Shown here: positions 35,747 to 55,560 of the stretch, in pieces
Layout of the letters: each line of letters starts with the position of its first letter
Numbering within the stretch: the first letter of the stretch is position 1
Assembly (NCBI RefSeq): GCF_056746865.1
Contig: NZ_JBWKMP010000004.1
Strand: one strand, 5' to 3'
Length of the DNA: 64,000 nt
Source: a plasmid
The notes under the pieces: generated by a model
Database searches by the model: none
What the model was told of the DNA's origin: nothing
The model's input: only the letters and a program-made list of their open reading frames with translations
Program-made: the position numbers and the translations under genes

Positions 35747-35829
35747 TCTCAAAATCGGTGGAGCTGCATGACAAAGTCATCGGGCATTATCTGAACATAA
35801 AACACTATCAATAAGTTGGAGTCATTACC
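35747..35829 (+). mobile_element. IS1, 3' terminal 83 bp (end of insB + IRR)
   Basis: TCTCAAAATCGGTGGAGCTGCATGACAAAGTCATCGGGCATTATCTGAACATAAAACACTATCAATAAGTTGGAGTCATTACC matches IS1 right end. Confidence 0.8.
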
Positions 35830-36330: not shown

Positions 36331-37371
36331 CTTAAGCACTATGAAGGTATCATACACCTTCATAGTGTACTTTTTTACTGCGCTTTGGGGCTAAATTGTT
36401 TTTGTGAATAGCCAGAATATCGTGGCTACGGCGGCAATGGAAATATATGATCTCTGCTGCCAGAGACTGGAGATGTAATTGGGGGCAGTTTGGATATCGA
36501 AAATTATTGTACTATAAGGGGTCCGCTTGAGGGGGCCGCTTGGAAAACGGAAATTTTCCCACGCTAAGAGAATTGAGTTGAACGAGTGGTTACATCTAGG
36601 CCAGCTAACTCACTGAACGTAAAGGCTGTACGAAATGTTCCGACCGTCCGATAACCATTTGGCTTACTTCCGTACATTTCCTTGCGTAGATGTACAGAAT
36701 TGTACGATTTCGGACACCAAAACTGCTGTTGTCCCGGTGCATGAAGCTACTTTCCGGGTTGGTGGTACTGACTTTGGTGTTCTTAACGACGACGTTTTCA
36801 ACTCTGAAAATCGCCTCTCTGCACGGGGATTTTTACCCCCCCATAGAGCCGTCATATAAATTCAAATTATTAACTTTGATGGTAGAATTATCTTAGGTTT
36901 GATAAAATTTTGAGCCGTCGCCGTTTACTTCACAGGATTCAATATAATGGCTAAATATACAGTTTGTGATTACCAATAAACTATTAGAAATAATGGGAAT
37001 GGTTGTGCCAATCTCTATCTGGAGGTCTTATTGCAGGGAACATCCACCCCATCGTTACACCAATACAGAATTGCCCCCGATACAAGACATCCAGACATTA
37101 ACCTAATAAAAGCGCACCTTGACGAGGGCTTTCAGCAGGCAAAGTCTGAGGGATTAAAAGTAGAGATTTCAGATTATAAAGAACGTCTTTACCTGTACAT
37201 TAGAACACCTGGTAATAACCTAATGCAATATTCTGGTTGCAGAGAAAAATAATACAGTCGCGCTGGATACGCTGACATTGACGCAGTTATATGATTTTCT
37301 GGCGTTGGTCAGTAAACCAGCTGCAGCCAAAACGGTGTAGTCCCTGACACAGGCGCCGGTCATTCTGTTAA

Positions 37372-37497
37372 CTCATCCACGTATGGGATGAACAGTTGTT
37401 TCAGTTTGAAACCAGGGATGTCAGACGGATTTTTGCTGGCGAGTACGAAATCCGTTACGAACTTAATGGCCAGACTATTTATGTATTGCGCCTGTGA
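37372..37497 (+). pseudogene. RelE/ParE-like toxin C-terminal remnant
   Basis: LIHVWDEQLFQFETRDVRRIFAGEYEIRYELNGQTIYVLRL resembles the C-terminal beta-strands of RelE/ParE toxins; in-frame stop immediately upstream. Confidence 0.3.
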
Positions 37498-37624
37498 CAC
37501 ACACGAGAAAACAGGTAGATTGTGTGTGAGGGCAACTTTAACATAGCCTGCAGGTGTTAATTCAGGAGCATTGTTATCAGACCAAATATTTTTCATTCCA
37601 TTAAATAGTCTTGTAGGGGATAAA

Positions 37625-37906
37625 ATGAATTACGATGAAATAACGAAAATCACTGCAGAACGTATTAGCGACTACATGACTGAAGCGGTTAATACAGACT
37701 CTAAATCTGTTGCGGAAATGTTTCATAACGCTGCATGGGGAGTGCTATCATTGTGGTTTGAACTCGTCACAAAAATAGATCTGGATATACATAAAAAGAA
37801 CAGGTATGCAAGTTATGATTTTAGAAGAAAAATCGAAATGCAGCATGAAGAGTTTCAGAAAATGACAGAGCGTGAGCAAGTGCCTTTATTGAAATTGCCT
37901 GAATAA
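37625..37906 (+). CDS. hypothetical protein (93 aa)
   Basis: ATG at 37625 within track ORF 37571-37906 ([22 protein letters not shown]...). Confidence 0.35.
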
Positions 37907-38028
37907 CAGAGACAGTGCAAACGATTATTTCATAATAACGATTATGTAATGACTGGTAAGAAAATAACTTGATTGAGTTCCCTTTATCCAGCCTGATAGT
38001 GGATAAAGGGAACTCAATAATAATTGAA

Positions 38029-38382
38029 TTAATTTATTAGCTTCATCGCATTTTTTTTGGTCTCTTCATCACTTTTTTGCTCTTGTTGTGAAGAGGATTG
38101 AGTGACTATTGAAGAATTAAAATCGGCCATCTCTTTTGGAAATAGCGATCTCAATATATTCACGATATCTGAAAATGTGGTTTCTTTCGTCAGCAGCTCA
38201 CATAAAAGGAAAGGGGTCCGGGGATCTTGTCTGTATAAGGCCAGACCTGCCGTCAGTGCGGCCCGGTTAAGGCGGCTTCGTTCCCCTTGCGGGATACTGT
38301 CCAGTGTATCACAAACAATTTTATCTGTTTGATTTACATCTGGATTTAGTTTGAAGGCAATGGTTCTGCGCTTGTCCATCAT
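38029..38382 (-). CDS. parR: plasmid partition adaptor ParR (StbB)
   Basis: 117-aa [46 protein letters not shown]... ; directly after parM. Confidence 0.85.
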   Translation of the reverse strand: MMDKRRTIAFKLNPDVNQTDKIVCDTLDSIPQGERSRLNRAALTAGLALYRQDPRTPFLLCELLTKETTFSDIVNILRSLFPKEMADFNSSIVTQSSSQQEQKSDEETKKNAMKLIN

Positions 38383-39344
38383 TAATTACCTATGAGATAC
38401 ATACCGTTAACTAAATCATATTGAGAGTTATTGGTTTTGAAAAAACGTTCATCACGAATCTGTGTGTGTTTTTTTACTGCATCGCATATTAATTCTGCGC
38501 CACCGCCTATAACCATAACATGAGTATAACCAGAAAATTCATTGAGCGTATTTAATACACGTTGCTCAAGTTTACGAAGTGCTTCATTCATTGCTTCGGT
38601 GACTATTGATATTTTGTTCTCATCATTAATTCGTTGCTTCAGATAGTTATTATCTTTTCTGTGAATGATTATATCGTCAGCAAGATAGCTACTTCCTTTT
38701 GTTCTCGCAAGAGAAAGGGCATCTTTTACTGCAGATGTAACCAGAGAGACACCAAGAGATGAGTCTCCGTATATTTTACTGATCCCCGATAATTTCCCCA
38801 TTACCTGAGAAATATCTAATGTGGTGCCCCCGAGATCTATAATTAATAAAGAATCTAACTCATCCAGTTCTTGTAGAACTTCATAACCTGCCGGTATAGA
38901 TTCAGGCATGACTTTTACATCTTTTATTGTGAATGTATCCCCGCCATTTAATGTAATTTTTTTCCGGAAGTTTGCTTTCTTACGCTCAATATTTTCCGTA
39001 TTGGGTTGGTTATTTCTGTCGTAATACTCTGTCAGAGGAAGTGTGCAAACAATATCCACTTCGCTTACCGGCAGACCACTGGTCAGTAAGGCGTGATGCA
39101 CTGCAACGACATTAACGTCGCTGTATTGCCATGCGATATTGGTTGTGACTACAGCATCCGGGCTGATTGGATCAAATGAATACTGTTCGCCGTTCAGTGT
39201 GTAGTTAAAGACCTTTTTATCACCAAAAGAGACTGCCCACTCGCGTTTGAAGCTGTTCGGGCTAATGTGCTGTTTAATTGTTCCGTCGCTTTCCTGCCAC
39301 TGTAGTTTGATGTTTGTTGAACCGTCATCAATGAATACCAACAT
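38382..39344 (-). CDS. parM: actin-like segregation ATPase ParM (StbA)
   Basis: 320-aa [40 protein letters not shown]... matches R1/R100 ParM. Confidence 0.9.
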
Positions 39345-39535
39345 TTATAAAACTCCTTATGGTGTTTTTTTGGTGTGTGTTTGGGTATGTTTTGGGTTTT
39401 AAGTGGGTTTGTTTGTCAAGTTTACCCCATTTCAACCATCAATCAATGATTATTTGTCTTGTTTTGGTGTTTTATTGGGTTGGGTATGGGTTGTTTTTGG
39501 GTTTTGTTTGGCGGGTAACAAAAGATGTCGCCGGG
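39345..39535 (-). promoter_or_regulatory. parC: parC centromere/promoter region with short direct repeats
   Basis: GT-rich reiterated motifs (GTTTTGGGTTTT, GGGTTGGGTATGGGTTGTTTTTGGGTTTTG) immediately upstream of parM. Confidence 0.5.
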
Positions 39536-39860
39536 CTCCTCTTTTTACTGCGCCGGCTGACGCGGCGCGGCAGGAACGCTGCCTGTGGTCAGTGTCCCGC
39601 GTCCGGCCGGGCACGGGACGGGCGCTTTTACCGCTCCCGGCTGGCGTTGGTGACAGTGTACGCCAGCCCGTCGCCCTTTTCTGATGAACGCCCTTCAAGC
39701 CGCTTTCGCGGCATATCCTCGCCGTCAAAAAGACGACGGCTGCGGTATTCCACGGTCGGCCTGACCCGTTACCGGACGCGGTGAACAGCCCACAGGCAGC
39801 GGGGAACGGGCACCACAGGGGTGCCCTCCCGGTGCCCTCTGTAAGAGAAGGAGTGCTGTT

Positions 39861-40544
39861 ATGTCCCGTTTTATCCTGGGTGACTGCGTGCGTGTTATGG
39901 CCACGTTTCCGGGCAATGCTGTCGATTTCATCCTCACCGACCCGCCGTATCTCGTCGGTTTCCGTGACCGTTCCGGGCGCACCATCGCCGGCGATAAAAC
40001 CGATGAATGGCTGCAACCAGCCTGTAATGAAATGTACCGCGTACTCAAAAAAGACGCGTTAATGGTGAGCTTCTATGGCTGGAACCGCGTCGATCGCTTT
40101 ATGGCCGCCTGGAAAAATGCGGGATTCAGCGTTGTTGGTCACCTGGTCTTCACCAAAAACTACACATCGAAGGCCGCATATGTGGGCTATCGCCACGAAT
40201 GTGCCTACATCCTGGCAAAAGGCCGTCCACGTCTGCCACAAAACCCGCTGCCGGACGTGCTGGGCTGGAAATATTCGGGCAATCGCCATCACCCGACGGA
40301 AAAGCCCGTTACCAGCCTGCAACCGCTGATTGAGAGCTTCACACACCCGAACGCAATTGTGCTGGACCCGTTTGCAGGCAGCGGCTCAACCTGCGTCGCC
40401 GCCCTCCAGTCCGGACGCCGGTATATCGGTATCGAGCTGCTTGAGCAGTATCACCGTGCCGGGCAGCAACGCCTTGCCGCCGTGCAACGGGCCATGCAGC
40501 AGGGGGCCGCGAATGATGACTGGTTTATGCCGGAGGCTGCGTAA
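39861..40544 (+). CDS. orphan DNA N6-adenine/N4-cytosine methyltransferase (leading region)
   Basis: 227-aa ORF with DPPY motif (FILTDPPYLVGF) and AdoMet-binding motif (DPFAGSGSTCVAA). Confidence 0.8.
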   Translation: MSRFILGDCVRVMATFPGNAVDFILTDPPYLVGFRDRSGRTIAGDKTDEWLQPACNEMYRVLKKDALMVSFYGWNRVDRFMAAWKNAGFSVVGHLVFTKNYTSKAAYVGYRHECAYILAKGRPRLPQNPLPDVLGWKYSGNRHHPTEKPVTSLQPLIESFTHPNAIVLDPFAGSGSTCVAALQSGRRYIGIELLEQYHRAGQQRLAAVQRAMQQGAANDDWFMPEAA

Positions 40545-40766
40545 ATGAACTATGCAGGACACGAAAAACTGCGCGCCGAAGTGGCGGAGGTGGCCAATGC
40601 CATGTGCGACCTGCGTACAACCATGAATGAGATGGAGCAGCGGTACAGCTTTAATGCCGACACCCTGCCGGAACGTCTGGTGCGTCAGACGCTGTTTCGC
40701 GCAAACCGCCTCCTGATGGAGGCATATACCGAAATTCTGGAACTGGAAGCGTGCTTTAAAGATTGA
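40545..40766 (+). CDS. hypothetical protein (73 aa)
   Basis: ORF start overlaps stop of upstream methyltransferase gene. Confidence 0.45.
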   Translation: MNYAGHEKLRAEVAEVANAMCDLRTTMNEMEQRYSFNADTLPERLVRQTLFRANRLLMEAYTEILELEACFKD

Positions 40767-40779
40767 GAAGGAGACGAGA

Positions 40780-41214
40780 ATGTACGGAACATGCGAAACG
40801 CTATGCCGGGAGCTGGCAGTAAAGTATCCGGGAGACATGCCGCTGATGCTGGTTATCTGGTCCCCGGAAGAGATTCAGGCACTGGCTGACGGTATGGAAA
40901 TTTCTCTGACCGGTCATGAAATCAGGACCGTCCTGGCACGCCTGGAGGACATCCCGGAAGACCAGCGGATTGAGTCCGGTATTTCTTCCGCTGCGGTGAT
41001 GGAGATTATCCGCAACGAGAGCGAAAACCGCCTGGTGACCGTCCCTGCTGAACTGCTGGCGTCCCTGATTCAGACCGCTGAACAGGCATTGTGGAAACGT
41101 GAATGGGCCGCCCGGGATCATGGCCTCGCCGTCCCGGAATGCGTCACCCGCCGTCAGGAGGTGGTTAATCAGGCCCGCACCCTGCTGAAAAACAACACAC
41201 ACGAAAACGACTGA
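40780..41214 (+). CDS. hypothetical leading-region protein (144 aa)
   Basis: ORF with GAGAAGGAGA RBS-like sequence upstream. Confidence 0.5.
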
Positions 41215-41264
41215 TGTTATCGCCGCCTGCCCTGCGGGCGGCGATACAGGGAGAACGCTTAATC

Positions 41265-42041
41265 ATGAACGAAAACAGCACGCTGAACGCACTGATTTGT
41301 CGTCACGCCCGCAACCTGCTGCTGGCGCAGGGCTGGCCGGAAGAGACGGATGTTGACCAGCGTAACCCGAAGTATCCGGGCTGGATCAGCATTTATGTTC
41401 TGCTGGATGCGCCCCGGCTGGCGACGTTACTTATCAACCGTCACGGCGGCGTACTGCCGCCGCTCCTGGCCTCCGCCATTCAGAAACTGACCGGAACCGG
41501 GGCGGAACTGGTACTGTCCGGCAGTCAGTGGCAGTCGCTGCCGGTACTTCCGGCAGACGGAACGCAGGTGTCTTTCCCGTATGCCGGAGAATGGCTGACC
41601 GAAGACGAAATCAGGGCTGTACTTGCGGCGGTGCGCGATGCGGTACGCAGTGTCAGTTGCCGGGTGGCAGAAGATGCGCGGCGTATCCGGGCGGCGCTGA
41701 CCACCACCGGTCAGACGTTGCTGACTCGCCAGACGCGCCGCTTTCGTCTGGTTGTGAAGGAAAGCGATCACCCCTGCTGGCTCGATGAAGATGACGAAAA
41801 CCTGCCCGTGGTGCTCGATGCCATCGTGAACCGGGGAGCACGTTTTTCGTCGGTGGAAATGTACCTGGTCAGCGATTGTATTGAGCATATCCTGTCCAGT
41901 GGGCTGGCCTGCGATGTGCTGCGTATACCGGATGAACCGCCCCGCCGCTGGTTTGACCGTGGTGTTCTGCGGGAGGTGGTCCGGGAAGCCCGGGCCGAAA
42001 TCCGCAGCATGGCGGATGCCCTGGCAAAAATCCGGAAATGA
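41265..42041 (+). CDS. hypothetical leading-region protein (258 aa)
   Basis: ATG at 41265 preceded by GGGAGA; within track ORF 41214-42041. Confidence 0.5.
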
Positions 42042-42458
42042 TGACGTTGGCGGGGTAAATCCCCGCCTTTTTCCTGCCGGTCCCCGGACAGAGCACAAAG
42101 GAAGTCGCCGCCGGCTCCGCTTTACCCGGCCATGCGGGGCATGGCCTTGTGGGTTTTCAGTTATGTGGCCTCAGCGTCGTGTGCGGGCTGTGCCGTGCCT
42201 CCATCGTAGCCGGGCTGGCAGGGATGCAAGGGTACGCTTCGCCGCTGCGGTCACCCGGTCCCTCCTTCCCGTCTGCCGTGATTTTCCGGTCGTTCACCCG
42301 CTCAGATTTCGCGGTCTCACCCTCCAACTCCCGCCAGCCGTGTGCGTCAGGCTGCGGCTTCCCTTGCGCCCTGTGCATCCCCGCCTTATCGCCCGGCTTT
42401 TATGGAGGCACGGCACCGCCCGGTGTCGCGGAATATGTGAACAACGGAGGAAAACATC

Positions 42459-42884
42459 ATGCAATATGCGAAACCTGTCACTCTGAACGTTGAAGAGTGC
42501 GACCGTCTCTCCTTTCTACCGTATCTGTTTGGCAACGATTTTCTGTATGCCGAGGCGTATGTGTACGCGCTGGCGCAAAAAATGATGCCGGAATATCAGG
42601 GAGGCTTCTGGCACTTCATCCGCCTGCCGGACGGTGGCGGTTACATGATGCCGGATGGCGACCGTTTCCACATGGTGAACGGTGCAAACTGGTTTGACCG
42701 TACCGTGAGTGCTGATGCCGCAGGCATCATTCTGACTTCCCTTGTGATTAACCGCCAGTTGTGGCTGTACCACGACAGCGGGGATGCAGGACTGACCCAG
42801 CTTTACCGGATGCGCGATGCGCAGTTGTGGCGTCACATCGAATTTCACCCCGAATGCAACGCGATTTACGCGGCACTGGACTGA
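42459..42884 (+). CDS. ArdB/KlcA-family antirestriction protein
   Basis: 141-aa [40 protein letters not shown]... size and sequence consistent with KlcA/ArdB family. Confidence 0.7.
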
Positions 42885-42930
42885 TTAACGGACGGGGCGG
42901 CAATGCCGCCCCTGTAAAGGAGACGAGAAC

Positions 42931-43353
42931 ATGTACTGTACTGTTAAAGAAATTATCCGCGAAGTGCTGAACACAGACGTGCCGGACAGTGAATGCGTTT
43001 TTGCCGTGGTGCTGACCCGTGGGGATGTGCGTCACATAGCCCAGGACTGGAGTCTGACAGACGATGAGCTGGAAACCGTCATGCAGCGACTGGACGATGC
43101 CTTTGCGCATGGTGCGGATGTCAGCATTGTTCACGACGTTGTTCGTGAGCTGATGGAAGAAAAGCGCGCCAGCCGTCAGGTGACAGTTCCGGCGGTGATG
43201 CTGGAAAAAGTGATGGCGCTGGCAGGCAGTGAAATGAAGCGCCTGTATGCCGTCGGGAGCGAGAACGGGGGCGACGGTGACGCATTCGTCAGGGAAGAAC
43301 GCGAAGCAATGGACGTTGTGTTACAGGCGCTGGACGGGGAGCACATGTCATGA
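42931..43353 (+). CDS. hypothetical leading-region protein (140 aa)
   Basis: ORF with AAAGGAGA RBS upstream. Confidence 0.5.
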   Translation: MYCTVKEIIREVLNTDVPDSECVFAVVLTRGDVRHIAQDWSLTDDELETVMQRLDDAFAHGADVSIVHDVVRELMEEKRASRQVTVPAVMLEKVMALAGSEMKRLYAVGSENGGDGDAFVREEREAMDVVLQALDGEHMS

Positions 43354-43879
43354 ATATCAGCACAGAAACCCGCGAAATTCTGCGCAATTACAAAGCCGTG
43401 ATTAATGCGCGGCGTCGTGAAATGGGGCAGAAACCGCTCACCACTGCGCAGATTGTTGATGAAATCTGCGATTTTGTGGCGAATCAGCAGGCTGTATTCC
43501 TCGGCGGTCACTACATCCTTCAGGGCAGCATAAACAGGTGATACAGGGGCAGGCGGTGGAGGCCGCCTGTCAGCCCGCGCGAAAACCCCTGGCAGGCTGA
43601 CGCCTGCCGGAAGGGAAGCGGGCCACGCTGGCGCGTCGCCCGTTACCCTTCCCGTCTGTGATGTGTCTGACTCAGGAGTGTTTCTTTCTTATGTTATGGA
43701 ACTGTTCCTGATGTTGTTGTTCCTTTATCTACTGCTCTGATTCTGACTACTGCAGTGTTGTTCTGTCTGCCGGGCGCACCTTCGGCTCCCGGCTGCCTGG
43801 CGGCATCCGGTCGTCAGGCCCGACTCCGACAGGCAGCTGCTGGCGCACCTGCCAGTCTCCGCCGAACCCGCTGGCGCGG

Positions 43880-44345
43880 TTTCGGGCTGCCGCTACGGTC
43901 CGATGCGTGAAAACCCCTGGCTTGCAGCGACCGTTCCGGTCGCGCCGCCTCTGTCGCGCCGTGGCCTGCGCTCCCGGCATCCCGGCAAAAGGCCGCCGGG
44001 ATGTAAGGGGCAACGCCGTTTCGCGCACGCGCTCTCCGTCGTTGCGGCGGGCCCCTGCTCATTGCCTGCCGGGTGCCACACACCCGTATGAGTCCCTGTC
44101 GCCGGGGGCATAGACAGCCACAACCTGCCGCACTGACTGTCCAGGGTAAATGAACAGCCCACAAAATTTTTTACCCAAAAACCGGTAAAAAATTTTGCGT
44201 TCTGCCCAGGACAGGTGCGTCAGGCCGTGGCAGTGATGCCCCTTGCGGCGAAGGTTCTCAAACGGGTGAAGTTCATACCACAGGGAATACAGCAGCAGGT
44301 TCCCGCGAAACGTCAAAACCGCGGCTCCCGAAACTCAACGGGTGA
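43880..44345 (+). repeat. Frpo/ssi-like leading-region repeat, copy 1 (diverged)
   Basis: ~85-90% identical to copies at 47090-47650 and 52565-53140; GC-rich stem-forming segment followed by conserved promoter-like core. Confidence 0.6.
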
Positions 44346-44578
44346 TGTTCTTTAAAAATCAGGATTTATTTCAGGCTCCGGCAATACGCATTTATTTGTT
44401 CTGTCAGTCATCCGGCTGGCAGGTAATGAGAACGCAGGAACAGAAGGAGGAAAACACCGGAGAACGTCAGACGCAGATATGAAAAAAGCAGGCCGGGGAG
44501 GACCTGCTTAATCCACACCGCAAAAACTGTTCGAGCAGTTTCTGCGGTTCCATTCAACAGTCATAAGGAGTTTCATTT

Positions 44579-44809
44579 ATGACGGTAAGTATTGTTTCAC
44601 CTTCCGCAGCGGCTGTAAAGCCCCGCCGTCATCCCCGTTTCAGACGCGAAGACATCCCCGCGCCGGAAATTGACCCCGTGCTGAAAGCCTTCGGGCGACA
44701 CATTGCCCGGAGTTTTCACCGGGGACGTGGTGTACACATCCCCGCCATGAAAAATACGGCTTTCGGGCAGGTGCTCCGCACACTCGAACTGAAACGCGCT
44801 TTTAACTGA
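44579..44809 (+). CDS. hypothetical protein (76 aa)
   Basis: ORF downstream of repeat copy 1. Confidence 0.4.
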   Translation: MTVSIVSPSAAAVKPRRHPRFRREDIPAPEIDPVLKAFGRHIARSFHRGRGVHIPAMKNTAFGQVLRTLELKRAFN

Positions 44810-44860
44810 TGAGGTGAGCCGCCCCGCGAGGGGCGGCAACAGACGGAAGGAGAACATTTT

Positions 44861-46222
44861 ATGACATTAGCTGCAATCACCATGACCGCCCCGGAAGCCG
44901 CCAGCCCTGTGCAGATGTACCGCGCGACCTACTCACCGGATGACAACAAACTGCGCCTGTATGCCGCGTCACGTCTTGACCCGGAGACGTATAAAAAAGT
45001 GCATGATGCCGGTTTCCGCTGGGCACCCAGACAGGCGCTGTTTGTCGCGCCAGCCTGGACACCGGGCCGGGAAGACGTGCTCCTCTCACTTGCCGGAGAG
45101 ATTGAGGATGAAGACAGCACGCTCGCTGAACGTCAGGAAGCACGGGCGGAGCGGTTTACCGGATACAGCGGAAAGCGGGCCAGTGAATCCGCACAGGCAC
45201 TTGATGAAGTGGAAAGACTGGCCGCGATGATCCCGCCCGGTCAGCCCATTCTTGTGGGGCATCACAGCGAACGCCGCGCCCGTCGTGATGCGCAGCGTAT
45301 TGAAAACGGCATGAAACGTGCCGTGATGCTCTTTGAACGTGCGGAATACTGGGAAGAACGGGCGCGGTCGGCACTGCTTCACGCGAAGTATAAAGAACGC
45401 CCGGACGTTCGCTGGCGTCGTATCAAAAAAATCGAAGCTGATTTGCGCAAGGCTGAAAAGACCATCGCACAGTCGCAGAAATATCTGACGATGTGGCGGG
45501 CTGAATCGCTGGATCTGAATATGGCAAAACTCATCAGCAGTCATGACCATATCAGCGCCTGTTTCCCGCTGGATACGTATCCGCGCCCGGCAGAAAAAAG
45601 CCAGTATGAAGGGAGCCGGTCGTTATGGTCGGCCCTGGATGATGACATCATCACCACGGAGCAGGCCCGCGAAATTGCGATCCGCTGTCATGAACGGCAG
45701 ATTCAGCATCAGCAACGCTGGGTTAACCACTATCAGAACCGCCTGATCTATGAGCGTGCCATGCTGGACGAAAGCGGCGGCGTGGTTACCCGGACACAGG
45801 ATTTTGAGCCGGGCGGACAGGTTTTCAGCCGGGGCGAGTGGCTGACTATCATCCGCGTGAACAAAAGCAACGGGGCGGTGAGTTCAGTCACAACGCCAAA
45901 TTACAGTTTTCTCGGGTACAGCGGCACGATGAAAGTGACGCCCGATCGCATCACGGACTACAAAGCACCATCGGCAGAAGAGGCTGCCGTCGCCAGTCAG
46001 GCCGCGAAGCGTCCGCCGGTAGTCAACTATCCGGGGGAAGGTTTCCGGGAAATGACAAAGGCGCAGTGGGCCGCCCTGCCCCGGGACTGTAAGGCCGTGC
46101 GCAGTGTGGAAGAAGCAGAAGACCACGGGGCATACCGCTACCGCCGCACAATGGACAATAATTTCCGTCTGGTGAATGTGTATATCACCGACATGAAAAT
46201 CACGGAAATCCCACAGAAATAA
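44861..46222 (+). CDS. hypothetical leading-region protein (453 aa)
   Basis: long ORF with AGGAGA RBS; charged and coiled-coil-like central region. Confidence 0.6.
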   Translation: MTLAAITMTAPEAASPVQMYRATYSPDDNKLRLYAASRLDPETYKKVHDAGFRWAPRQALFVAPAWTPGREDVLLSLAGEIEDEDSTLAERQEARAERFTGYSGKRASESAQALDEVERLAAMIPPGQPILVGHHSERRARRDAQRIENGMKRAVMLFERAEYWEERARSALLHAKYKERPDVRWRRIKKIEADLRKAEKTIAQSQKYLTMWRAESLDLNMAKLISSHDHISACFPLDTYPRPAEKSQYEGSRSLWSALDDDIITTEQAREIAIRCHERQIQHQQRWVNHYQNRLIYERAMLDESGGVVTRTQDFEPGGQVFSRGEWLTIIRVNKSNGAVSSVTTPNYSFLGYSGTMKVTPDRITDYKAPSAEEAAVASQAAKRPPVVNYPGEGFREMTKAQWAALPRDCKAVRSVEEAEDHGAYRYRRTMDNNFRLVNVYITDMKITEIPQK

Positions 46223-46268
46223 GGTATATCCCCCCGGGAAATCCCCGGGGGATGACGGAGATAATGAT

Positions 46269-46832
46269 ATGCACAGTCAGTTAAGAGAACGTATCCGGCT
46301 GATGCGCGCAAGGCTGGATAACGCCGCGCCGGTTGCTGAAATCCGGGCTGAATCTCAGCTTTTTGTGAGTCCTGCCCCGATCTGTGATCGCCTGGTGACG
46401 CTGGCGGAAATCAGCAACCGTGATCACATTCTGGAACCCTCTGCCGGCACCGGGGCCATACTGCGGGCGATTCGGGATACCGCGCCGGAGGCCATGTGTG
46501 ATGCGGTGGAGATTAACAGCGGGCTGGTCCGGTATCTGCGGGAAAATTTTAACGGTGTCAGGGTACAGTGTGGCGACTTCATGGAATGGCAGCCGGTGCA
46601 GTATTACAGCCGGATCATTATGAATCCGCCGTTCAGTCACGGGCAGGATATCCGGCATATCCTGCGGGCTTTTTCCCTGTTGCGTCCGGGGGGCGTTCTG
46701 GTTGCCGTCTGTCTCAACGGGCCACGCCAGCAGGAGAAGCTGTTACCGTTTTCTGACGTCCGCGAGGAGCTGCCGCGCGGCACGTTTGCTTATACCGATG
46801 TCCCGACGATGATTATTCGTTTGCGTGCCTGA
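46269..46832 (+). CDS. class I SAM-dependent methyltransferase (putative DNA MTase)
   Basis: AdoMet motif ILEPSAGTGAI and NPPF motif (IIMNPPFSHG). Confidence 0.6.
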   Translation: MHSQLRERIRLMRARLDNAAPVAEIRAESQLFVSPAPICDRLVTLAEISNRDHILEPSAGTGAILRAIRDTAPEAMCDAVEINSGLVRYLRENFNGVRVQCGDFMEWQPVQYYSRIIMNPPFSHGQDIRHILRAFSLLRPGGVLVAVCLNGPRQQEKLLPFSDVREELPRGTFAYTDVPTMIIRLRA

Positions 46833-47011
46833 TGACACAGGGCTGGCGGGAGGATAAATGCCCGTCTGTCCGCGCCGGGAAAAAACCGCGCGCCGGTGGC
46901 GCTGAAAGGGGCCGCGCTCACGCGCCGCCCCTTTCATTACGCGGACGTTCTGATGGGGGCTTCTGTCTTTTCAGACCTGTCATTTGTCTGTTACTGATGA
47001 TGTTGTTGTTC

Positions 47012-47071
47012 CTGCTACTGCTACTGCTACTGCTACTGCTACTGCTACTGCTACTGCTACTGCTACTGCTA
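47012..47071. repeat. perfect tandem hexanucleotide repeat (CTGCTA)x10
   Basis: read directly; followed by one imperfect unit CTGTTC. Confidence 0.95.
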
Positions 47072-47089
47072 CTGTTCTTCTTTTTTCTA

Positions 47090-47650
47090 CTGCCCTGATT
47101 ATTGTCTGTTTTGTTGTTCTCCTGCTTATGCCTTTTCCGGGCGTCCCCCTGGCGGGGCGGGCTGTCGTGAACGGAGCCAGCGAAGCTGTCTCCGCCCTGG
47201 CGGGCTTCCATCCCTGACGCAAAAACCCGGGTTTGCAGCGACCGGAACGGTCGCGCCACCCTTGTCGCGCCGTGGCCTGCGCTCCCGGCATCCCGGCAAA
47301 AGACGCCGGGATGTAAGGAGCAACGCCGTTTCGCAAACCGCGCTTCACGTCGTTGCGGCGGGTCCCTGCCCGTTGTTCTGTCCGGTGCCATTCACCTGTT
47401 TAAGCCCCTGTCGCCGGGGGCATAGACAGCCACAACCTGCCGCACTGACTGTCCAGGGTAAATGAACAGCCCACAAAATTTTTTACCCAAAACCCGGTAA
47501 AAAATTTTGCGTTCTGCCCAGGACAGGTGCGTCAGGCCGTGGCAGTGATGCCCCTTGCGGCGAAGGTTCTCAAACAGGTGATGGTGAATACCGGAGGGAA
47601 CAAAAGGCAGGTCCCCGCAAAACGTCAAAACCGCGGCTCCCGAAACTCAA
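47090..47650 (+). repeat. Frpo/ssi-like leading-region repeat, copy 2 (upstream of ssb)
   Basis: near-identical to copy 3 over ~560 bp. Confidence 0.7.
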
Positions 47651-47692
47651 CAGATGATGGGGGCTGAAAACATCAACAGAAGGAGACACATC

Positions 47693-48220
47693 ATGGCAGT
47701 TCGTGGCATTAACAAGGTCATTCTTGTCGGTCGTCTGGGAAAAGATCCGGAAGTCCGTTACATCCCCAACGGGGGCGCAGTGGCAAACCTGCAGGTGGCC
47801 ACGTCAGAAACCTGGCGCGACAAACAGACGGGGGAAATGAAGGAGCAGACGGAATGGCACCGCGTGGTGCTGTTCGGCAAGCTCGCGGAAGTGGCAGGTG
47901 AATATCTGCGTAAGGGGGCGCAGGTCTACATTGAAGGCCAGCTTCGCACCCGTAGCTGGGAAGATAACGGTATTACCCGTTACGTCACCGAAATCCTTGT
48001 TAAAACCACGGGCACCATGCAGATGCTGGGGAGTGCACCACAGCAGAACGCTCAGGTGCAACCGCAGCCTCAGCAGAATGGTCAGTCACAGAGTGCTGAC
48101 GCGACGAAAAAAGGGAGCGCGAAAACGAAAGGCCGTGGACGTAAGGCTGCGCAGCCGGAGCCTCAGCCGCAACCACCGGAGGGGGAGGATTACGGGTTTT
48201 CAGACGATATCCCGTTCTGA
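47693..48220 (+). CDS. ssb: plasmid single-stranded DNA-binding protein
   Basis: [48 protein letters not shown]... ; C-terminal acidic tail DDIPF. Confidence 0.9.
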
Positions 48221-48238
48221 CTGGCCTGACTGTGATAA

Positions 48239-48511
<273 letters not shown>

Positions 48512-48571
48512 GAGAGGTGCCGGACGGGGATCACGTCCGGCAGACATTAACTACACAATAAGGGGATAGTC

Positions 48572-50595
48572 ATGTCAGTAACAAAGTCTGAACCAAAATC
48601 TACCCGTAAAGCAAGCCGTAAACCTGCAAAAACGCAGGAAACTGTCCTGTCTGCCCTGCTGGCGCAGACGGAGGAAGTGAGCGTGCCGCTGGCCTCGCTG
48701 ATTAAGTCACCACTGAATGTGCGCACGGTGCCGTATTCTGCGGAGTCCGTCAGCGAACTGGCTGATTCCATTAAGGGGGTCGGCCTGCTGCAGAATCTGG
48801 TTGTTCATGCCCTGCCAGGTGACCGCCACGGTGTCGCCGCAGGTGGTCGCCGACTGGCAGCACTCAACATGCTGGCAGAGCGTGGCATCATTCCGGCTGA
48901 CTGGCCTGTCCGCGTGAAAATTATTTCGCAGGAACTGGCGACGGCCGCATCGATGACCGAGAACGGTCATCGTCGGGATATGCACCCAGCCGAACAGATT
49001 GCCGGATTCTGTGCAATGGCGCAGGAAGGCAAAACACCTGCACAAATCGGTGATTTGCTGGGCTATTCACCCCGCCACGTTCAGCGAATGCTGAAACTGG
49101 CTGACCTTGCGCCTGTCATCCTCGATGCGCTGGCAGAAGACCTCATCACCACCGAGCACTGTCAGGCGCTGGCGCTGGAGAACGACACCGCGCGTCAGGT
49201 GCAGGTGTTTGAAGCCGCCTGTCAGTCGGGATGGGGCGGTAAACCGGAAGTACAGACCATTCGTCGTCTGGTGACCGAAAGTGAAGTGGCGGTGGCAGGG
49301 AACAGTAAATTCCGCTTCGTGGGGGCTGATGCCTTCTCGCCAGATGAACTGCGCACTGACCTGTTCAGCGACGACGAGGGTGGCTATGTGGACTGCGTGG
49401 CGCTCGATGCCGCCCTGCTGGAAAAACTCCAGGCTGTTGCTGAACACCTTCGGGAAGCCGAAGGCTGGGGATGGTGCGCCGGACGCATGGAGCCTGTCGG
49501 TGAGTGCCGTGAGGATGCCGGAACATACCGCTGTCTGCCGGAGCCGGAAGCGGTGCTGACGGAGGCGGAAGAAGAACGTCTGAACGAACTGATGACGCGT
49601 TACGACGCGCTGGAAAACCAGTGTGAGGAATCTGACCTGCTGGAAGCAGAAATGAAGCTGATGCGCTGCATGGCGAAGGTCAGGGCGTGGACGCCGGAGA
49701 TGCGTGCCGGAAGCGGTGTGGTGGTGTCCTGGCGTTATGGCAACGTGTGTGTCCAGCGTGGTGTGCAGTTGCGCAGCGAGGATGATGCGGCTGACGACGC
49801 TGACCGCACGGAACAGGTGCAGGAGAAAGCGCCCGTGGAGGAAATCAGTCTGCCACTGCTGACGAAAATGTCTTCCGAACGCACGCTGGCAGTCCAGGCA
49901 GCACTGATGCAGCAACCGGACAAATCTCTGGCACTGCTGGCATGGACGCTCTGCCCTGATGAATCCCCTAATGATTTTTACCAAAATCATTAGGGGATTC
50001 ATCAGCGCTCTGCCTGAATGTGTTTGGCAGCGGAGCGTACAGTAAACCAGCACAAATCAGCCTGGAATGTAAACATTATTCGCTGACCAGCGATGCGCCA
50101 TCGGGGAAGGACGGTGCCGCATTCCTGGCGCTGATGGCAGAAAAAGCCCGTCTTGCAGCCCTGTTACCGGAGGGATGGTCACGGGATATGACGACATTCC
50201 TGTCACTCAGCCAGGAGGTACTGTTATCCCTGCTCAGTTTCTGCACCGCGTGCAGCATCCACGGCGTTCAGACCCGCGAGCATGGTCACACGTCACGCAG
50301 TCCGCTGGACTCGCTGGAGAGCGCTATCGGATTCCACATGCGCGACTGGTGGCAGCCGACGAAAGCAAACTTCTTCGGACACCTGCAAAAGCCGCAGATT
50401 ATCGATGCCCTGAATGATGCCGGACTGTCCGGTGCTGCGCGGGACGCGGAGAAAATGAAGAAAGGCGATGCCGCTGAACATGCAGAGTTCCACATGAAAG
50501 ACAACCGCTGGGTGCCTGGCTGGATGTGTACACCACGTCCACAGGCAGAGACGGAAACCACGGAGTACCGTGACGACCAGGCAGAAGCCGCCTGA
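48572..50595 (+). pseudogene. ParB-like nuclease domain protein, interrupted at 49947-50014 by a 50-bp Tn10 remnant plus 9-bp duplication
   Basis: two adjacent track ORFs (48572-49993, 50020-50595) in different frames; removing 59 bp restores a ~655-aa frame. Confidence 0.75.
49956..50005. mobile_element. 50-bp IS10/Tn10 nearly-precise-excision remnant
   Basis: CTGATGAATCCCCTAATGATTTT-TACC-AAAATCATTAGGGGATTCATCAG (two IS10 outside-end 23-mers inverted); flanked by 9-bp direct repeat CGCTCTGCC. Confidence 0.8.
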
Positions 50596-50663
50596 CCGCC
50601 AGTCATAAACCATTTATCACGCCGCCCTGCCGGAGACGGGGCGGCAGCAAGGGAGATACCGTG

Positions 50664-51098
50664 ATGAAAACTGAACTGACCCTGAATGTATTACAGACCA
50701 TGAGCGCACAGGAATATGAAGATATCCGGGCTGCCGGAAGTGATGAACGTCGTGAACTCACACATGCCGTGATGCGGGAGCTGGATGCGCCGGATAACTG
50801 GACGATGAACGGCGAGTATGGCAGCGAGTTCGGCGGCTTTTTCCCCGTCCAGGTCCGTTTCACGCCTGCCCACGAACGTTTTCACCTGGCGTTATGTTCA
50901 CCGGGCGATGTCTCTCAGGTCTGGGTGCTGGTTCTGGTGAATGCCGGTGGTGAGCCGTTTGCGGTGGTTCAGGTACAGCGGCGGTTTGCACCGGAAGCCG
51001 TCAGCCATTCACTGGCACTGGCGGCGTCACTGGACGCGCAGGGGTACAGCGTCAGTGACATCATCCATATCCTGATGGCGGAAGGAGGTCAGGCATGA
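50664..51098 (+). CDS. psiB: plasmid SOS inhibition protein PsiB
   Basis: [41 protein letters not shown]... Confidence 0.9.
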
Positions 51099-51814
51099 GC
51101 GCACGTTCACAGGCACTGGTTCCCCTCAGCGCAGAGCAACAGGCCGCATGGCGGGCGGTGGCGGAGACAGAAAAACGCCGCCACCAGGGAAACACGCTGG
51201 CGGAATATCCGTATGCGGGGGCGTTTTTCCGCTGTCTGAACGGAAGCCGCAGGATATCGCTGTCTGACCTGCGATTTTTCATGCCGTCCCTGACCGCAGA
51301 AGAACTGCGCGGCAACCGTTCTCAGTGGCTGTATGCCGTCGATGTGCTGATTGAAACTCAGGGCGAGGTCTGCCTTCTTCCCCTTCCCGGCGATGCAGCA
51401 GAGCGGCTGTTCCCGTCGGTGCGGTTCCGTGTCAGGGAGCGCAGTCGCCACAAATCCGCACTGGTCATGCAAAAGTACAGCCGCCAGCAGGCGAGGGAGG
51501 CAGAGCAGAAAGCCCGTGCGTACCAGGCGCTGGTCGCTCAGGCTGAAATCGAACTGGCATTCCATTCGCCGGAAACAGTCGGAAGCTGGCATGCACGCTG
51601 GAGTGACCGGGTGGCAGAGCATGACCTGGAAACCCTGTTCTGGCAGTGGGGTGAGCGTTTTCCGTCACTGGCCGGAATGGAACGCTGGCAGTGGCAGGAT
51701 ATGCCGTTCTGGCAGGTTATTGCGGAAGCCAGTCTTGCAGCAAGAGAGGCCGGTCACGCTGTCCGTGAGATGGAGCGGTGGATGGTGCCGAACAAACTCC
51801 GGGAGGCGGCGTGA
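51095..51814 (+). CDS. psiA: PsiA
   Basis: 239-aa ORF overlapping psiB stop. Confidence 0.85.
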
Positions 51815-52035
51815 TGCGGCAACAATCACACAGATTACCCGTAAACAGCCTGAATGAGCGGGTTATTTTCAGGAAAAGTGAGTGTGGTCAGCGTGCAGGT
51901 ATATGGGCTATGATGTGCCCGGCGCTTGAGGCTTTCTGCCTCATGACGTGAAGGTGGTTTGTTACCGTGTTGTGTGGCAGAAAGAAGATAGCCCCGTAGT
52001 AAGTTAATTTTCATTAACCACCACGAGGCATCCCT

Positions 52036-52248
52036 ATGTCTAGTCCACATCAGGATAGCCTCTTACCGCGCTTTGCGCAAGGAGAAGAAGGCCATGAAAC
52101 TACCACGAAGTTCCCTTGTCTGGTGTGTGTTGATCGTGTGTCTCACACTGTTGATATTCACTTATCTGACACGAAAATCGCTGTGCGAGATTCGTTACAG
52201 AGACGGACACAGGGAGGTGGCGGCTTTCATGGCTTACGAATCCGGTAA
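52036..52248 (+). CDS. mok: Mok-like reading frame overlapping hok (translational coupling element)
   Basis: 70-aa frame overlapping the hok ORF in another frame, as in hok/sok-type loci. Confidence 0.45.
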
Positions 52249-52252
52249 GTAG
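52094..52252 (+). CDS. hok: Hok-family type I toxin (FlmA/SrnB-like)
   Basis: 52-aa [52 protein letters not shown]. Confidence 0.85.
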
Positions 52253-52564
52253 CAACCTGGAGGCGGGCGCAGGCCCGCCTTTTCAGGGCTGATGCTGGTC
52301 TGACTGCACTGAAGCGCCTTTATAAAGGGGCTGCTGGTTCGCCGGTGGCCCCTTTCTCCTTGCTGGCATTGTACGGGCATGAACAACCAGACTGCCAGGA
52401 AGGCCGTTTCCCTCCGGGAACGGGGATGAACGTGCGCCTGCGGCGCCCGTTCTTTTCCCCCGCCTTCTCTGTTTATGACTTACCAGAAATCACATCACCT
52501 TCCCTTTGATTATTCTCTTTTTCCTCCTGCTCTGACTCTGATTACTGCTCTGACTCTGATTACT

Positions 52565-53140
52565 GCTGCCCTGATTATTGTCTGTTTTGTTGTTCTCCTG
52601 CTTATGCCTTTTCCGGGCGTCCCCCTGGCGGGGCGGGCTGTCGTGAACGGAGCCAGCGAAGCTGTCTCCGCCCTGGCGGGCTTCCATCCCTGACGCAAAA
52701 ACCCGGGTTTGCAGCGACCGGAACGGTCGCGCCACCCTTGTCGCGCCGTGGCCTGCGCTCCCGGCATCCCGGCAAAAGACGCCGGGATGTAAGGAGCAAC
52801 GCCGTTTCGCAAACCGCGCTTCACGTCGTTGCGGCGGGTCCCTGCCCGTTGTTCTGTCCGGTGCCATTCACCTGTTTAAGCCCCTGTCGCCGGGGGCATA
52901 GACAGCCACAACCTGCCGCACTGACTGTCCAGGGTAAATGAACAGCCCACAAAATTTTTTACCCAAAACCCGGTAAAAAATTTTGCGTTCTGCCCAGGAC
53001 AGGTGCGTCAGGCCGTGGCAGTGATGCCCCTTGCGGCGAAGGTTCTCAAACAGGTGATGGTGAATACCGGAGGGAACAAAAGGCAGGTCCCCGCAAAACG
53101 TCAAAACCGCGGCTCCCGAAACTCAACAGATGATGGGGGC
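52565..53140 (+). repeat. Frpo/ssi-like leading-region repeat, copy 3
   Basis: near-identical to 47090-47650. Confidence 0.7.
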
Positions 53141-53166
53141 TGAAAACATCAGATACAGGAGGAATT

Positions 53167-53463
53167 ATGAGCGCATTTTCTTTTAACACCACTTATCAGC
53201 CAACAGGCGATCAGCAGAAAGACGCAATCGCACAAATCGGGATCATGCAGAATCGTGCTGTTCAGGCAAATCTTGCATATCAGAGCTGCCGGGATTCTGG
53301 TGCACTCTTTAAGGTGCTCCACCAGGTCAATAATGAGCTGCATGACTTACTGGATAGCCTGGAGAATCATACTCCTCTTGTCAGAAAAAACGCTGATGAG
53401 TTGATCGCGCTGTTACTGCTTTTCACTCGGCAGGTTGGTCAGTCCCGAACTGACCTGATTTGA
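53167..53463 (+). CDS. hypothetical protein (98 aa)
   Basis: ORF with AGGAGGA RBS 7 nt upstream. Confidence 0.55.
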   Translation: MSAFSFNTTYQPTGDQQKDAIAQIGIMQNRAVQANLAYQSCRDSGALFKVLHQVNNELHDLLDSLENHTPLVRKNADELIALLLLFTRQVGQSRTDLI

Positions 53464-53573
53464 TGGTCCTTCCCCTCGGAATTGTTGTCTTTTTGTTAAC
53501 GATAACCGAGGGGGGATGATATTAAGCGAAAAAACTTTTATTAATTTTATGCCTTCATAAAGGAGTTACTGTT

Positions 53574-54395
53574 ATGCGATTAGCTTCCCGTTTTGGTCGA
53601 TATAATTCTATTCGCCGTGAGCGCCCGTTAACGGATGACGAATTAATGCAGTTTGTTCCATCTGTCTTTTCTGGTGATAAACATGAATCCCGGAGTGAGC
53701 GTTATACATATATCCCAACCATCAATATCATCAATAAGTTACGTGATGAAGGTTTCCAGCCATTCTTTGCCTGTCAGAGTCGGGTTCGTGATTTGGGACG
53801 CCGCGAATACAGTAAACATATGTTACGTCTTCGCAGGGAAGGGCATATTAACGGGAAAGAAGTTCCTGAAATTATCCTGCTTAATTCACATGATGGTTCA
53901 TCCAGTTATCAGATGATCCCAGGAATTTTTCGTTTTGTCTGCACAAATGGCCTGGTGTGTGGGAATAATTTTGGCGAAATCCGCGTTCCACATAAAGGTG
54001 ATATTGTCGGGCAGGTTATTGAGGGAGCGTATGAAGTGCTCGGTGTCTTTGATAAAGTCACTGAAAATATGGAGACAATGAAAGAGATACATCTTAACAG
54101 TGACGAACAACATTTATTTGGCAGAGCTGCATTGATGGCCAGGTACGAAGATGAAAATAAAACGCCAGTGACGCCAGAACAAATAATTACTCCCCGCCGT
54201 TGGGAGGATAAACAGAACGATCTCTGGACAACCTGGCAGCGGGTTCAGGAGAATATGATAAAAGGTGGATTATCGGGGCGAAGTGCCTCCGGTAAAAATA
54301 CCAGAACAAGAGCCATTACAGGCATTGACGGTGATATCCGAATCAACAAAGCATTATGGATGATTGCCGAACAGTTCAGGGAGTGGAAGTCATGA
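53574..54395 (+). CDS. hypothetical leading-region protein (273 aa)
   Basis: ORF with AGGAG RBS; conserved neighbour of oriT in F-like plasmids from memory. Confidence 0.6.
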   Translation: MRLASRFGRYNSIRRERPLTDDELMQFVPSVFSGDKHESRSERYTYIPTINIINKLRDEGFQPFFACQSRVRDLGRREYSKHMLRLRREGHINGKEVPEIILLNSHDGSSSYQMIPGIFRFVCTNGLVCGNNFGEIRVPHKGDIVGQVIEGAYEVLGVFDKVTENMETMKEIHLNSDEQHLFGRAALMARYEDENKTPVTPEQIITPRRWEDKQNDLWTTWQRVQENMIKGGLSGRSASGKNTRTRAITGIDGDIRINKALWMIAEQFREWKS

Positions 54396-54691
54396 TAATA
54401 TAAGTAAAGCCCCGAAAAATTTTTCGGGGCTTTACTTATATTATCATCCTGCGGCATTGCTGTGTCGTCTGATATGCCTCAATTTCATCAACTGGCTTTT
54501 CGGTAGTCTGTAAATATTGTGCCCGCGAAAAATGGTCTGGCAGGAGGCTGCGCAGTTACCGGATATATATAAGATGGGATCCCGCTTTGCGGGGCTTCGG
54601 CCAGTCAGCATTATCACTCATATGATATTTTTGTGTGTGGCCTTCCATGCCGCTGTCGCGGCATAACCGGTATTTGACAATGTATACAATA

Positions 54692-55201
54692 TTAATTTTT
54701 CTGCACACTGTTAATTTGGGAAAGTGATTTCTTCGTGGTCGGAACCCGGATGCCTTTACTGCTCTTTATCCAGGTATAAATCCGGTAAACCTCTGATGCG
54801 TAGGCAAGACGTCTCTGGTTCTGGCGTTCGGTCTTCCTGAATCCGGCATTGTATGCACCAACGGCCTCCCAGGAGACGCCCCATTTTTTAAAGGCTATTG
54901 CCAGATAATAAGCACCGGTATAAATGTTCATACAGGGATCTGTTGTCAGATGTTCCGGCTTAATTCCATAGCGGGCCAGTTCGTTAAAATGCTGGGAATC
55001 TACCTGCATCAGTCCGCTGCCATATCCCGTTACCGGATTAATACCGATGGCATTAACCCGGTAACGGGATTCTTTCCATGATATCGCTCTCAGTAAATCC
55101 GGGTCTATTTTGTAATCCCGACCTGCAAGATCAAAGCAATCGGCGGCTTCGCAGATCCCATTTATAAACATCAGGCAGATTGCTAACATCCATTTTTTCA
55201 T
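54692..55201 (-). CDS. lytic transglycosylase (F orf169-like)
   Basis: 169-aa with signal peptide [19 protein letters not shown]; track ORF extends spuriously upstream across oriT. Confidence 0.8.
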
Positions 55202-55239: not shown

Positions 55240-55560
55240 CCCACTCCACAAAAAGGCTCAACAGGTTGGTGGTTCTCACCACCAAAAGCACCACACCCCA
55301 CGCAAAAACAAGTTTTTGCTGATTTGCTTTTTGAATCATTAGCTTATGTTTTAAATAATGTATTTTAATTTATTTTACATTATTAAATAGGGGCGTTGAC
55401 GACCCTATGGCGACCCTATGGCGACCCTTGTTAGGGTCAGTACTGACAAATTTTATGAAAAACATTTGGATATATTAGGGCCGCCCCTAGCAGCGCCGTG
55501 CGTTTTTTTATAGTATGCCCCTAGGGGCGCTGCTAGGGGTGCTCTTCTTTTTTCAGACCA
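55240..55560. promoter_or_regulatory. oriT: oriT region (nic region and TraM/TraY binding repeats)
   Basis: GGTGTGGTGCTTTTGGTGGTGAGAACCACCAACC-like nic region on reverse complement near 55255-55300; direct repeats GACCCTATGGC x2 and palindrome CCCCTAGCAGCGC...GCGCTGCTAGGGG at 55400-55540; upstream of traM. Confidence 0.65.

Follow-up and report, generated by a model that had tools for sequence, protein, structure and literature searches.

Positions 49947 to 50014 of the window (the whole 64,000-nucleotide stretch of plasmid DNA that was analysed) hold a 68-bp scar which, judged from its sequence, is almost certainly the classical product of nearly precise excision of Tn10 at this site. Read in order, the scar consists of CGCTCTGCC, CTGATGAATCCCCTAATGATTTT, TACC, AAAATCATTAGGGGATTCATCAG and once more CGCTCTGCC, and these parts were assigned as follows.

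49947-49955, no strand assigned: left target-site duplication CGCTCTGCC, 9 bp; the same 9-mer flanks Tn10 of R100 at 36123 and 45279.
49956-50005, no strand assigned: 50-bp element, very probably the remnant of Tn10 nearly precise excision; it matches the simulated crossover product of R100 Tn10.
49956-49978, plus strand: left arm, the IS10 outside-end 23-mer CTGATGAATCCCCTAATGATTTT, by comparison with R100 Tn10.
49979-49982, plus strand: centre TACC, the loop sequence of the right-hand IS10 of R100, by comparison with R100.
49983-50005, minus strand: right arm, the inverted IS10 outside-end 23-mer AAAATCATTAGGGGATTCATCAG, by comparison with R100 Tn10.
50006-50014, no strand assigned: right target-site duplication CGCTCTGCC, from the repeat search and R100.

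The same layout was returned by a repeat finder, which reported a spacing of 59 bp for the CGCTCTGCC direct repeats and of 4 nt for the inverted arms. The 64-kb window contained just two copies of the 23-mer, one on either strand, where 0.00 were expected in dinucleotide-preserving shuffles, even with three mismatches allowed. The original prediction had described a 50-bp perfect palindrome lying between 9-bp direct repeats. The repeats were indeed present at 49947-49955 and 50006-50014, while the palindrome had to be qualified slightly, being perfect at 46 of the 50 positions; the arms are fully complementary, but the 4-nt centre TACC is not palindromic. As single-stranded DNA or RNA, the element is predicted to form a hairpin of 22 to 23 bp, and folding of an 88-nt context gave -27.4 kcal/mol for ssDNA and -44.2 kcal/mol for RNA (z = -7.8 and -7.9, respectively, compared to shuffled sequences). 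The hairpin was not called as an intrinsic terminator in a consensus scan, and no T-run follows it. The remnant left by nearly precise excision is classically observed to relieve the polarity of Tn10, and a hairpin without a T-run is consistent with that.

The reference sequence for Tn10 and IS10 was taken from the public R100 record NC_002134.1, where Tn10 (IS10, tetR/tetB/tetC with neighbouring genes, and a second IS10) sits between the DUF905 gene and psiB. Its outside ends lie at 36132 (start) and 45278 (end), giving a length of 9,147 bp, CGCTCTGCC abuts both of them, and the flanking 40 nt to either side agree with the window at every position. When the two 23-mers, predicted to be IS10 outside ends, were aligned with the IS10 termini, they equalled the outside ends of R100 Tn10 exactly. 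The remnant is thus made up of nt 1-23 of the Tn10 left end, TACC, and the final 23 nt of the Tn10 right end; read on the minus strand, it corresponds to nt 1-37 of the IS10-Right outside end followed by the complement of nt 1-13. The inside end of IS10, CTGAGAGATCCCC, differs from both arms. Since both arms are outside ends, the parent would have been a composite Tn10 and not a single IS10, the other end of which would read CTGAGAGATCCCC.

The junction itself could also be reproduced from R100. The first and last 60 nt of R100 Tn10 have the 12-bp direct repeat TAATGATTTTTA in common, and joining the two ends in silico at TAATGATTTTTA resulted in a 50-mer identical to 49956-50005. The full subterminal repeat is 24 bp long with one mismatch (TAATGATTTTTA T CAAAATCATTA at the left and ...TA C CAAAA... 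at the right), and the TACC centre places the crossover 5' of this sole T/C mismatch. Subterminal repeats of 24 bp were reportedly described for nearly precise excision by Ross, Swan and Kleckner in Cell in 1979 and by Foster, Lundblad, Hanley-Way, Halling and Kleckner in Cell in 1981.

The backbone around the scar is likewise of R100 type. In the interrupted gene, 0/1384 mismatches to R100 were found upstream of the scar and 1/593 downstream, and the window matched the R100 backbone at 99.36% over 35747-49992 and at 99.98% over 49969-54727. The window also corresponds to IncFII multiresistance plasmids of pECB11 type, found in E. coli from chicken, from which 12 kb of it differ by 6 gap positions and no mismatch. 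R100 and NR1 (NC_002134 and NC_009133) hold Tn10 in the same gene and allele, where target (9 bp), duplication, and flanks all agree with those of the window; R100 retains 9,147 bp including tet(B), whereas the window retains 50 bp and has tet(A) elsewhere. The left junction of R100 (flank, duplication, and Tn10 end) was found at full length in only 15 plasmids, 11 of R100 type at 100% identity (R100, NR1, and nine others) and four at ~97%; R100 was the one plasmid in which both junctions and the length of 9,147 bp were read, the others being matched at the left junction. The parB gene of R100 has already been published as the location of Tn10 (PMC2797631).

With the substrate in R100, the product in the window, and an exact repeat-to-repeat junction, nearly precise excision was borne out as the predicted origin of the scar, and so was the predicted ancestor carrying Tn10 at this site, given the R100 insertion at the same target in an essentially identical allele. 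The parental insertion need not be the exact one kept in R100, as the site appears to be a hotspot (see below), although the identical allele argues for it. No sequence evidence contradicting the excision was found.

The following course of events would account for these observations. An IncFII ancestor would have carried the composite Tn10 in a leading-region ParB-family gene, inserted at CGCTCTGCC. Tn10 would then have been lost through a deletion between the imperfect 24-bp direct repeats just inside its outside ends, TAATGATTTTTA(T/C)CAAAATCATTA, with a crossover within the first 12 bp of the repeat removing 9,097 of the 9,147 bp and leaving 50 bp together with both 9-bp duplications. We infer from the literature that this deletion occurred by transposase-independent copy-choice slippage, a process that would be aided by the pairing of the inverted 1.3-kb IS10 copies with each other once the DNA is single-stranded. 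In the part of PMC12524634 that refers to d'Alencon et al., nearly precise excision is ascribed to copy choice and said to be stimulated when replication is single-stranded or of the rolling-circle type. The leading region turns single-stranded at each conjugative transfer, and we suggest that transfer may have promoted the excision. Thereafter, the scar would merely have been inherited, marking an R100-derived segment of the leading region.

A scar could in principle also be left if the transposase excised Tn10 and the break in the donor were then repaired imprecisely, an origin to which we assign hardly any probability. Double-strand cuts are said to release Tn10 in cut-and-paste transposition (Benjamin and Kleckner, in 1992), which is not specific support for such an origin here. 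The transposase cuts flush at the termini, and repair would not keep the 23 to 37 nt found per end; moreover, a junction exactly within the 24-bp direct repeats is the signature of a repeat-mediated deletion, and the classical genetics of Foster et al. in 1981 reportedly found nearly precise excision to be independent of transposase.

The excision scar interrupts a gene of the ParB family, leaving two fragments.

48572-49993, plus strand: 5' fragment of the leading-region ParB-family gene, with 461 native residues and 12 scar-encoded residues (PDESPNDFYQNH); it ends at a TAG inside the right arm.
50015-50595, plus strand: 3' part of this gene, covering native residues 462-654.

The net gain of 59 bp shifts the reading frame and brings in the in-frame TAG, and the gene is thereby split. 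As had been predicted for an open reading frame of about 655 codons, the pieces 48572-49993 and 50020-50595 lie in different frames; the second of these listed frames begins at a GTG that is native codon 464, and no Shine-Dalgarno-like sequence was found before this GTG. Deletion of 49956-50014 (59 bp) in silico restored a single open reading frame of 654 codons, whose 1,965 nt agree at 100% with those of a naturally intact gene, the annotated CDS WP_001537566.1 of NZ_CP103757.1. In an identical plasmid locus, the gene is labelled by PGAP as a pseudogene, "frameshifted; internal stop", and the scar accounts for this flag of the annotation pipeline.

The restored protein contains the Pfam domains ParB_N (residues 41-131, E = 5e-6) and HTH_ParB (residues 136-222, E = 7e-7), and it scored under the curated cutoffs of all named NCBIfam ParB models (e.g., 56.2 bits vs a cutoff of 58.45 for TIGR00180, and 60.9 vs 278.6 for PRTRC_parB). 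From these matches, the product appears to be a distant member of the ParB family, one that cannot be counted among the established partition proteins; for its own partitioning, the plasmid has a ParM-type system. In older Pfam releases, ParB_N went by the name "ParB-like nuclease domain". The original prediction had spoken of a ParB-like nuclease, and while the ParB-like part agrees with the two domains, "nuclease" was an overstatement, its basis being a domain match. The truncated product of 473 residues keeps both recognisable domains and lacks the C-terminal 193 residues, and the loss of function that had been predicted as likely is plausible.

The scarred gene lies in the leading region of the plasmid, for which the following features were noted.

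47048-47581, plus strand: Frpo-like repeat, one of the three that the leading region contains, located upstream of ssb.
50661 or 50664 to 51098, plus strand: psiB, directly downstream of the scarred gene.
51095-51814, plus strand: psiA, next after psiB.
55285-55299, minus strand: oriT nic motif GGGGTGTGGTGCTTT, which we take to be of F/R100 type; consistent with this, it is located between the SLT transglycosylase gene and traM.

As the nic motif is on the minus strand, the minus strand would be the one transferred, and the scar would be located in the leading region, which enters the recipient first. The scarred gene sits between ssb/DUF905 and psiB/psiA, and the PsiB and PsiA proteins are identical to those of R100. 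It has previously been shown that ssb-parB2-psiB-psiA form a conserved leading-region cluster (PMC8406263), and that yfjB of F is part of an Frpo2-driven operon transiently transcribed from the incoming single strand (PMC9849209). Frpo-like repeats were found at 44066, 47048-47581, and 52524-53057, and by analogy with Frpo2 of F, the repeat at 47048-47581 is presumed to be the single-strand promoter region for the block of ssb, DUF905, the ParB-like gene, psiB, and psiA. The interrupted gene is homologous to yfjB of F and parB2 of pED208 (ParB2/YfjB), with which it shares both the location between ssb/DUF905 and psiB and the ParB_N and HTH_ParB domains; unlike these, it is interrupted at codon 461/462.

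The scar is an inherited marker common to about 900 sequenced plasmids and is not private to this one. Using a 108-bp probe (the scar with 20 nt of flank on each side) at a coverage of at least 80%, we found it in 919 of 72,556 PLSDB plasmids (~1.3%), including Escherichia, Klebsiella, and E. fergusonii records and the 92,353-bp NC_005327.1, presumably pC15-1a. With the same probe, 238 of 5,426 complete E. coli genomes (4.4%) were positive, in 245 records altogether, and the hosts of the carriers include Escherichia, Klebsiella, and Salmonella, among others. In 14 PLSDB plasmids, the site was uninterrupted and the local allele, over 602 bp, identical; these could be either never-inserted ancestors or precise-excision revertants, the two being indistinguishable by sequence alone. 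Taking the same or related alleles, the site was scarred in 919 plasmids, uninterrupted in 14, and occupied by IS10 or Tn10 in 15. When species-representative genomes were scanned for remnants with any 4-nt centre, there was one match, in an enterobacterial contaminant contig of a Streptomyces assembly.

These numbers also bear on whether the scar might be a chance palindrome or an artefact of sequencing or assembly, an explanation to which we give no credence. Its arms match the IS10 ends exactly, with 0 such matches expected by chance, and the identical sequence was found in 919 independently sequenced plasmids. Nothing speaks for an artefact, though some database copies do show homopolymer-length errors in the scar. 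Those variants, 2 to 3 bp shorter (L016 and L017), differ in homopolymer lengths only and were set aside as long-read assembly errors.

Other states of the same site were also found. The centre of the scar reads TATC instead of TACC in nine plasmids, with sources in pig E. coli from Norway, pig Salmonella from Korea, and cat E. coli from Thailand. TATC is the product expected from a crossover in the second half of the 24-bp repeat of R100 Tn10, and the two scars, TACC and TATC, are most economically explained by at least two independent excisions; formally, the one base could also have changed by a C-to-T point mutation. The TATC plasmids are mosaic, with 45 differences at gene positions 4-899, while the gene is of R100 type in the final 485 bp upstream of the scar and throughout the 593 bp downstream, indicating that the scarred segment has recombined into another IncF backbone.

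Further derivatives, here given as at least the examples named, have lost most of the remnant. In pHB42-F3, a +4 state (CGCTCTGCC-CTGA-TGAATG) was found on the allele of the window and R100, and by its sequence it appears to be a further 55-bp deletion between TGAAT microhomologies. In pVE-V10-F_2, a +1 state (CGCTCTGCC-C-TGAATG) was found on the mosaic allele of the TATC scar. The exact position of the junction and the TATC mosaic allele favour, but do not prove, its derivation from the scar; it could instead be a random frameshift, i.e., a simple slip in a C-run. Both derivatives are still frameshifted.

The site has also received insertions of other kinds. A solo IS10 of 1,329 bp with the same 9-bp duplication is present in pAPEC-O2-211A-ColV, on an allele 91-93% identical. 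An insertion in such a divergent allele must be an independent one, and this indicates that the site is a genuine insertion hotspot. The Tn10 hotspot consensus is NGCTNAGCN; CGCTCTGCC agrees with it at 5 of the 6 specified positions, and no 6/6 match was found within the interrupted gene. The ECOR31 plasmid has an IS10 outside end at the site, with the left-end loop GGTA and not TATC, and the stretch examined contained no tet genes and no second end. A Salmonella Heidelberg IncC plasmid has a tet(B)-carrying Tn10 segment at the site, again with the left-end loop GGTA and not TATC; its right-hand IS10 is not annotated. As some copies at the site have the GGTA loop, a TACC product does not by itself tell which Tn10 variant was the parent.

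The 50-bp element is also found at other loci. An identical 50-mer with its own 9-bp duplication, AGTTTGGCA, adjoins mcr-1 in an IncP plasmid. Two E. coli genomes have the 50-mer in a chromosomal fimbrial pseudogene beside strA-strB, where the flanking 9-mers do not match. These copies, too, are at least the examples named, and with an independent remnant at another locus, the excision event recurs in nature.

Together with the two intact 23-nt outside ends and the independent solo IS10 with the same duplication at this hotspot, the mcr-1 copy could be taken to mean that the 50-bp element is a MITE-like, IS10-derived mobile element moved in trans by IS10 transposase, and that the lineage never had Tn10 here. 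Like MITEs, the scar is a short element with terminal inverted repeats and a target-site duplication; it differs from them in that it would be derived in situ from a full transposon and is far shorter than is typical. We consider such a mobile element very improbable. The surrounding allele is identical to that of R100, with a full Tn10 at the same position, and TACC and TATC are the two products predicted from the one mismatch in R100, whereas a mobile mini-element would keep one centre. The copy at another site is equally well explained by a separate Tn10 insertion followed by excision. In addition, a length of 50 bp would fall well short of what the bending and pairing of two ends in the Tn10 transpososome requires, and no sign of mobility of the scar element was found.

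Compared to the classical remnant of nearly precise excision, the scar has the same 50 bp, a junction in the 24-bp repeats, and the 9-bp duplication on both sides, and apart from the occurrence of both crossover alleles, TACC and TATC, at one site, there is no structural difference. Unlike laboratory revertants, it arose in nature, has become fixed, and is passed on widely among resistance plasmids of clinical and veterinary origin. Precise excision of Tn10 is similarly a repeat-mediated deletion promoted by inverted repeats, and it could act secondarily on the 50-bp remnant; precise excision would restore the wild-type gene, whereas the window keeps 59 extra bp. The mechanism has been known since 1979-81, and the scar, while real and widespread, is mechanistically ordinary and no new kind of element. 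No open-access literature describing the scar itself was found; the likely sources, Boyd et al. 2004 on pC15-1a and Dutreix et al. 1988 on psiB of R6-5, lay outside the coverage. Boyd et al. reportedly mention "the absence of Tn10" in pC15-1a relative to R100. What is new here is the quantification and the series of character states at one hotspot.

The 68-bp signature provides an unambiguous marker of a leading region inherited from an R100-type ancestor that once held Tn10, and the centre alleles and the +4 and +1 derivatives can serve as character states for tracing recombination among IncF backbones. It is conceivable, although we doubt it, that the scar is not neutral and that one of three effects helped the success of the scarred lineage. 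If so, the loss of 9.1 kb would have restored read-through of the early, single-strand-promoter-driven operon of ssb, DUF905, the ParB-like gene, psiB, and psiA in new recipients. In addition, the residual perfect 23-bp hairpin in the transferred strand and in the early transcript might modulate complementary-strand synthesis upstream of psiB, or, as an RNA hairpin, affect mRNA processing there, e.g., through RNase III cleavage. As a third effect, the loss of full-length ParB2/YfjB could itself have aided the scarred lineage. Deletion of parB2 in pED208 caused no detectable change in pilus production, transfer, or SOS induction (PMC8406263), which fits the epidemiological success of the scarred plasmids. 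The scar can be seen as a natural knockout, showing that IncFII resistance plasmids do not need full-length ParB2/YfjB for their epidemic spread.

The 50-bp Tn10 remnant was also found at other sites. The IncP mcr-1 plasmid pHKSHmcr1_P2_p1 (L009, NZ_MF136778.1) carries at 1501-1550 a remnant identical to that of the window, including the centre TACC, which lies ~600 bp from mcr-1 and is bordered by its own 9-bp duplication, AGTTTGGCA. On this sequence evidence, it represents a separate scar of nearly precise excision, formed at a different site by an independent event. A 50-mer identical to the scar was likewise present in the chromosome of Escherichia coli AR_0089 (L008, NZ_CP032265.1; 1501-1550) and in H190 (NZ_CP190027.1). 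It has aph(3'')-Ib/aph(6)-Id on one side and a truncated fimbrial gene on the other, and the bordering 9-mers differ (AGCCGAGTG vs GGTCAAGCA), suggesting a deletion or rearrangement adjoining the 50-mer after excision.

With regard to the origin of the 24-bp repeats, the subterminal loop in the left IS10 of Tn10 in R100 (L003, 36132-36170) reads TATC. In the Salmonella enterica serovar Heidelberg IncC plasmid pRM101_1 (L014) and in the ECOR31 plasmid (L015), 12070-12108, the IS10 outside end that occupies the scar's site has the loop GGTA, as in IS10-Right. The R100 loop resembles that of IS10-Right in inverted form (complement TACC), plus a single extra change, and such an inversion would account for the near-perfect 24-bp direct repeat used in excision. 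In pRM101_1 (10395-19384), the left end of Tn10 is joined to IncF DNA that comprises the DUF905 gene and a 5' portion of the ParB-like gene; the annotation of this segment holds no right-hand IS10. It appears that a piece of the IncF leading region moved together with Tn10 into the unrelated IncC backbone.

The scar also appears to have decayed further in some plasmids. At the scar site, 4 bp (CTGA) remain in pHB42-F3 (L002, 12020-12040), apparently through deletion between TGAAT microhomologies, and 1 bp (C) remains in pVE-V10-F_2 (L011, 3021-3040). Secondary decay of the scar explains the 4-bp state and probably also the 1-bp state. Each lies on a gene allele shared with one or other type of scar, and the gene is still frameshifted in both. 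Scar copies 2-3 bp shorter in CP082328.1 (L016) and NZ_CP104119.1 (L017) were rejected as biological variants, since homopolymer lengths account for all their differences (CCCC to CCC, TTTTT to TTTT), which look like long-read assembly errors. A 4,944-bp contig assigned to "Streptomyces morookaense" (contig164, L004, NZ_JABBXF010000164.1), with the scar at 2308-2375, shows 100% identity to the IncFII leading-region locus of enterobacteria, also across the scar, and by its sequence is almost certainly contamination in that assembly.

Three copies of a repeat family (~200-530 bp, copies 94-95% identical) lie in the leading region of the window:

44066-44269, leading-region repeat, copy 1
47048-47581, middle copy, directly upstream of ssb
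52524-53057, copy 3

Their likely counterparts in F are the single-strand promoter regions of Frpo type. In the window, an intact psiA (51095-51814) encodes a protein identical to that of R100; several relatives with the scar or Tn10 (pCREC-591_2, L001, 4446-5208; locus L010; and pVE-V10-F_2) have a psiA that is annotated as frameshifted.

Finally, pAPEC-O2-211A-ColV (L013, NZ_CP030791.1) holds a solo IS10 of 1,329 bp (12070-13398) at the scar's 9-bp target. The duplication is again the same, but the gene allele is a divergent one (91-93% identity). This 9-bp target is a hotspot for IS10/Tn10 and has been hit repeatedly.
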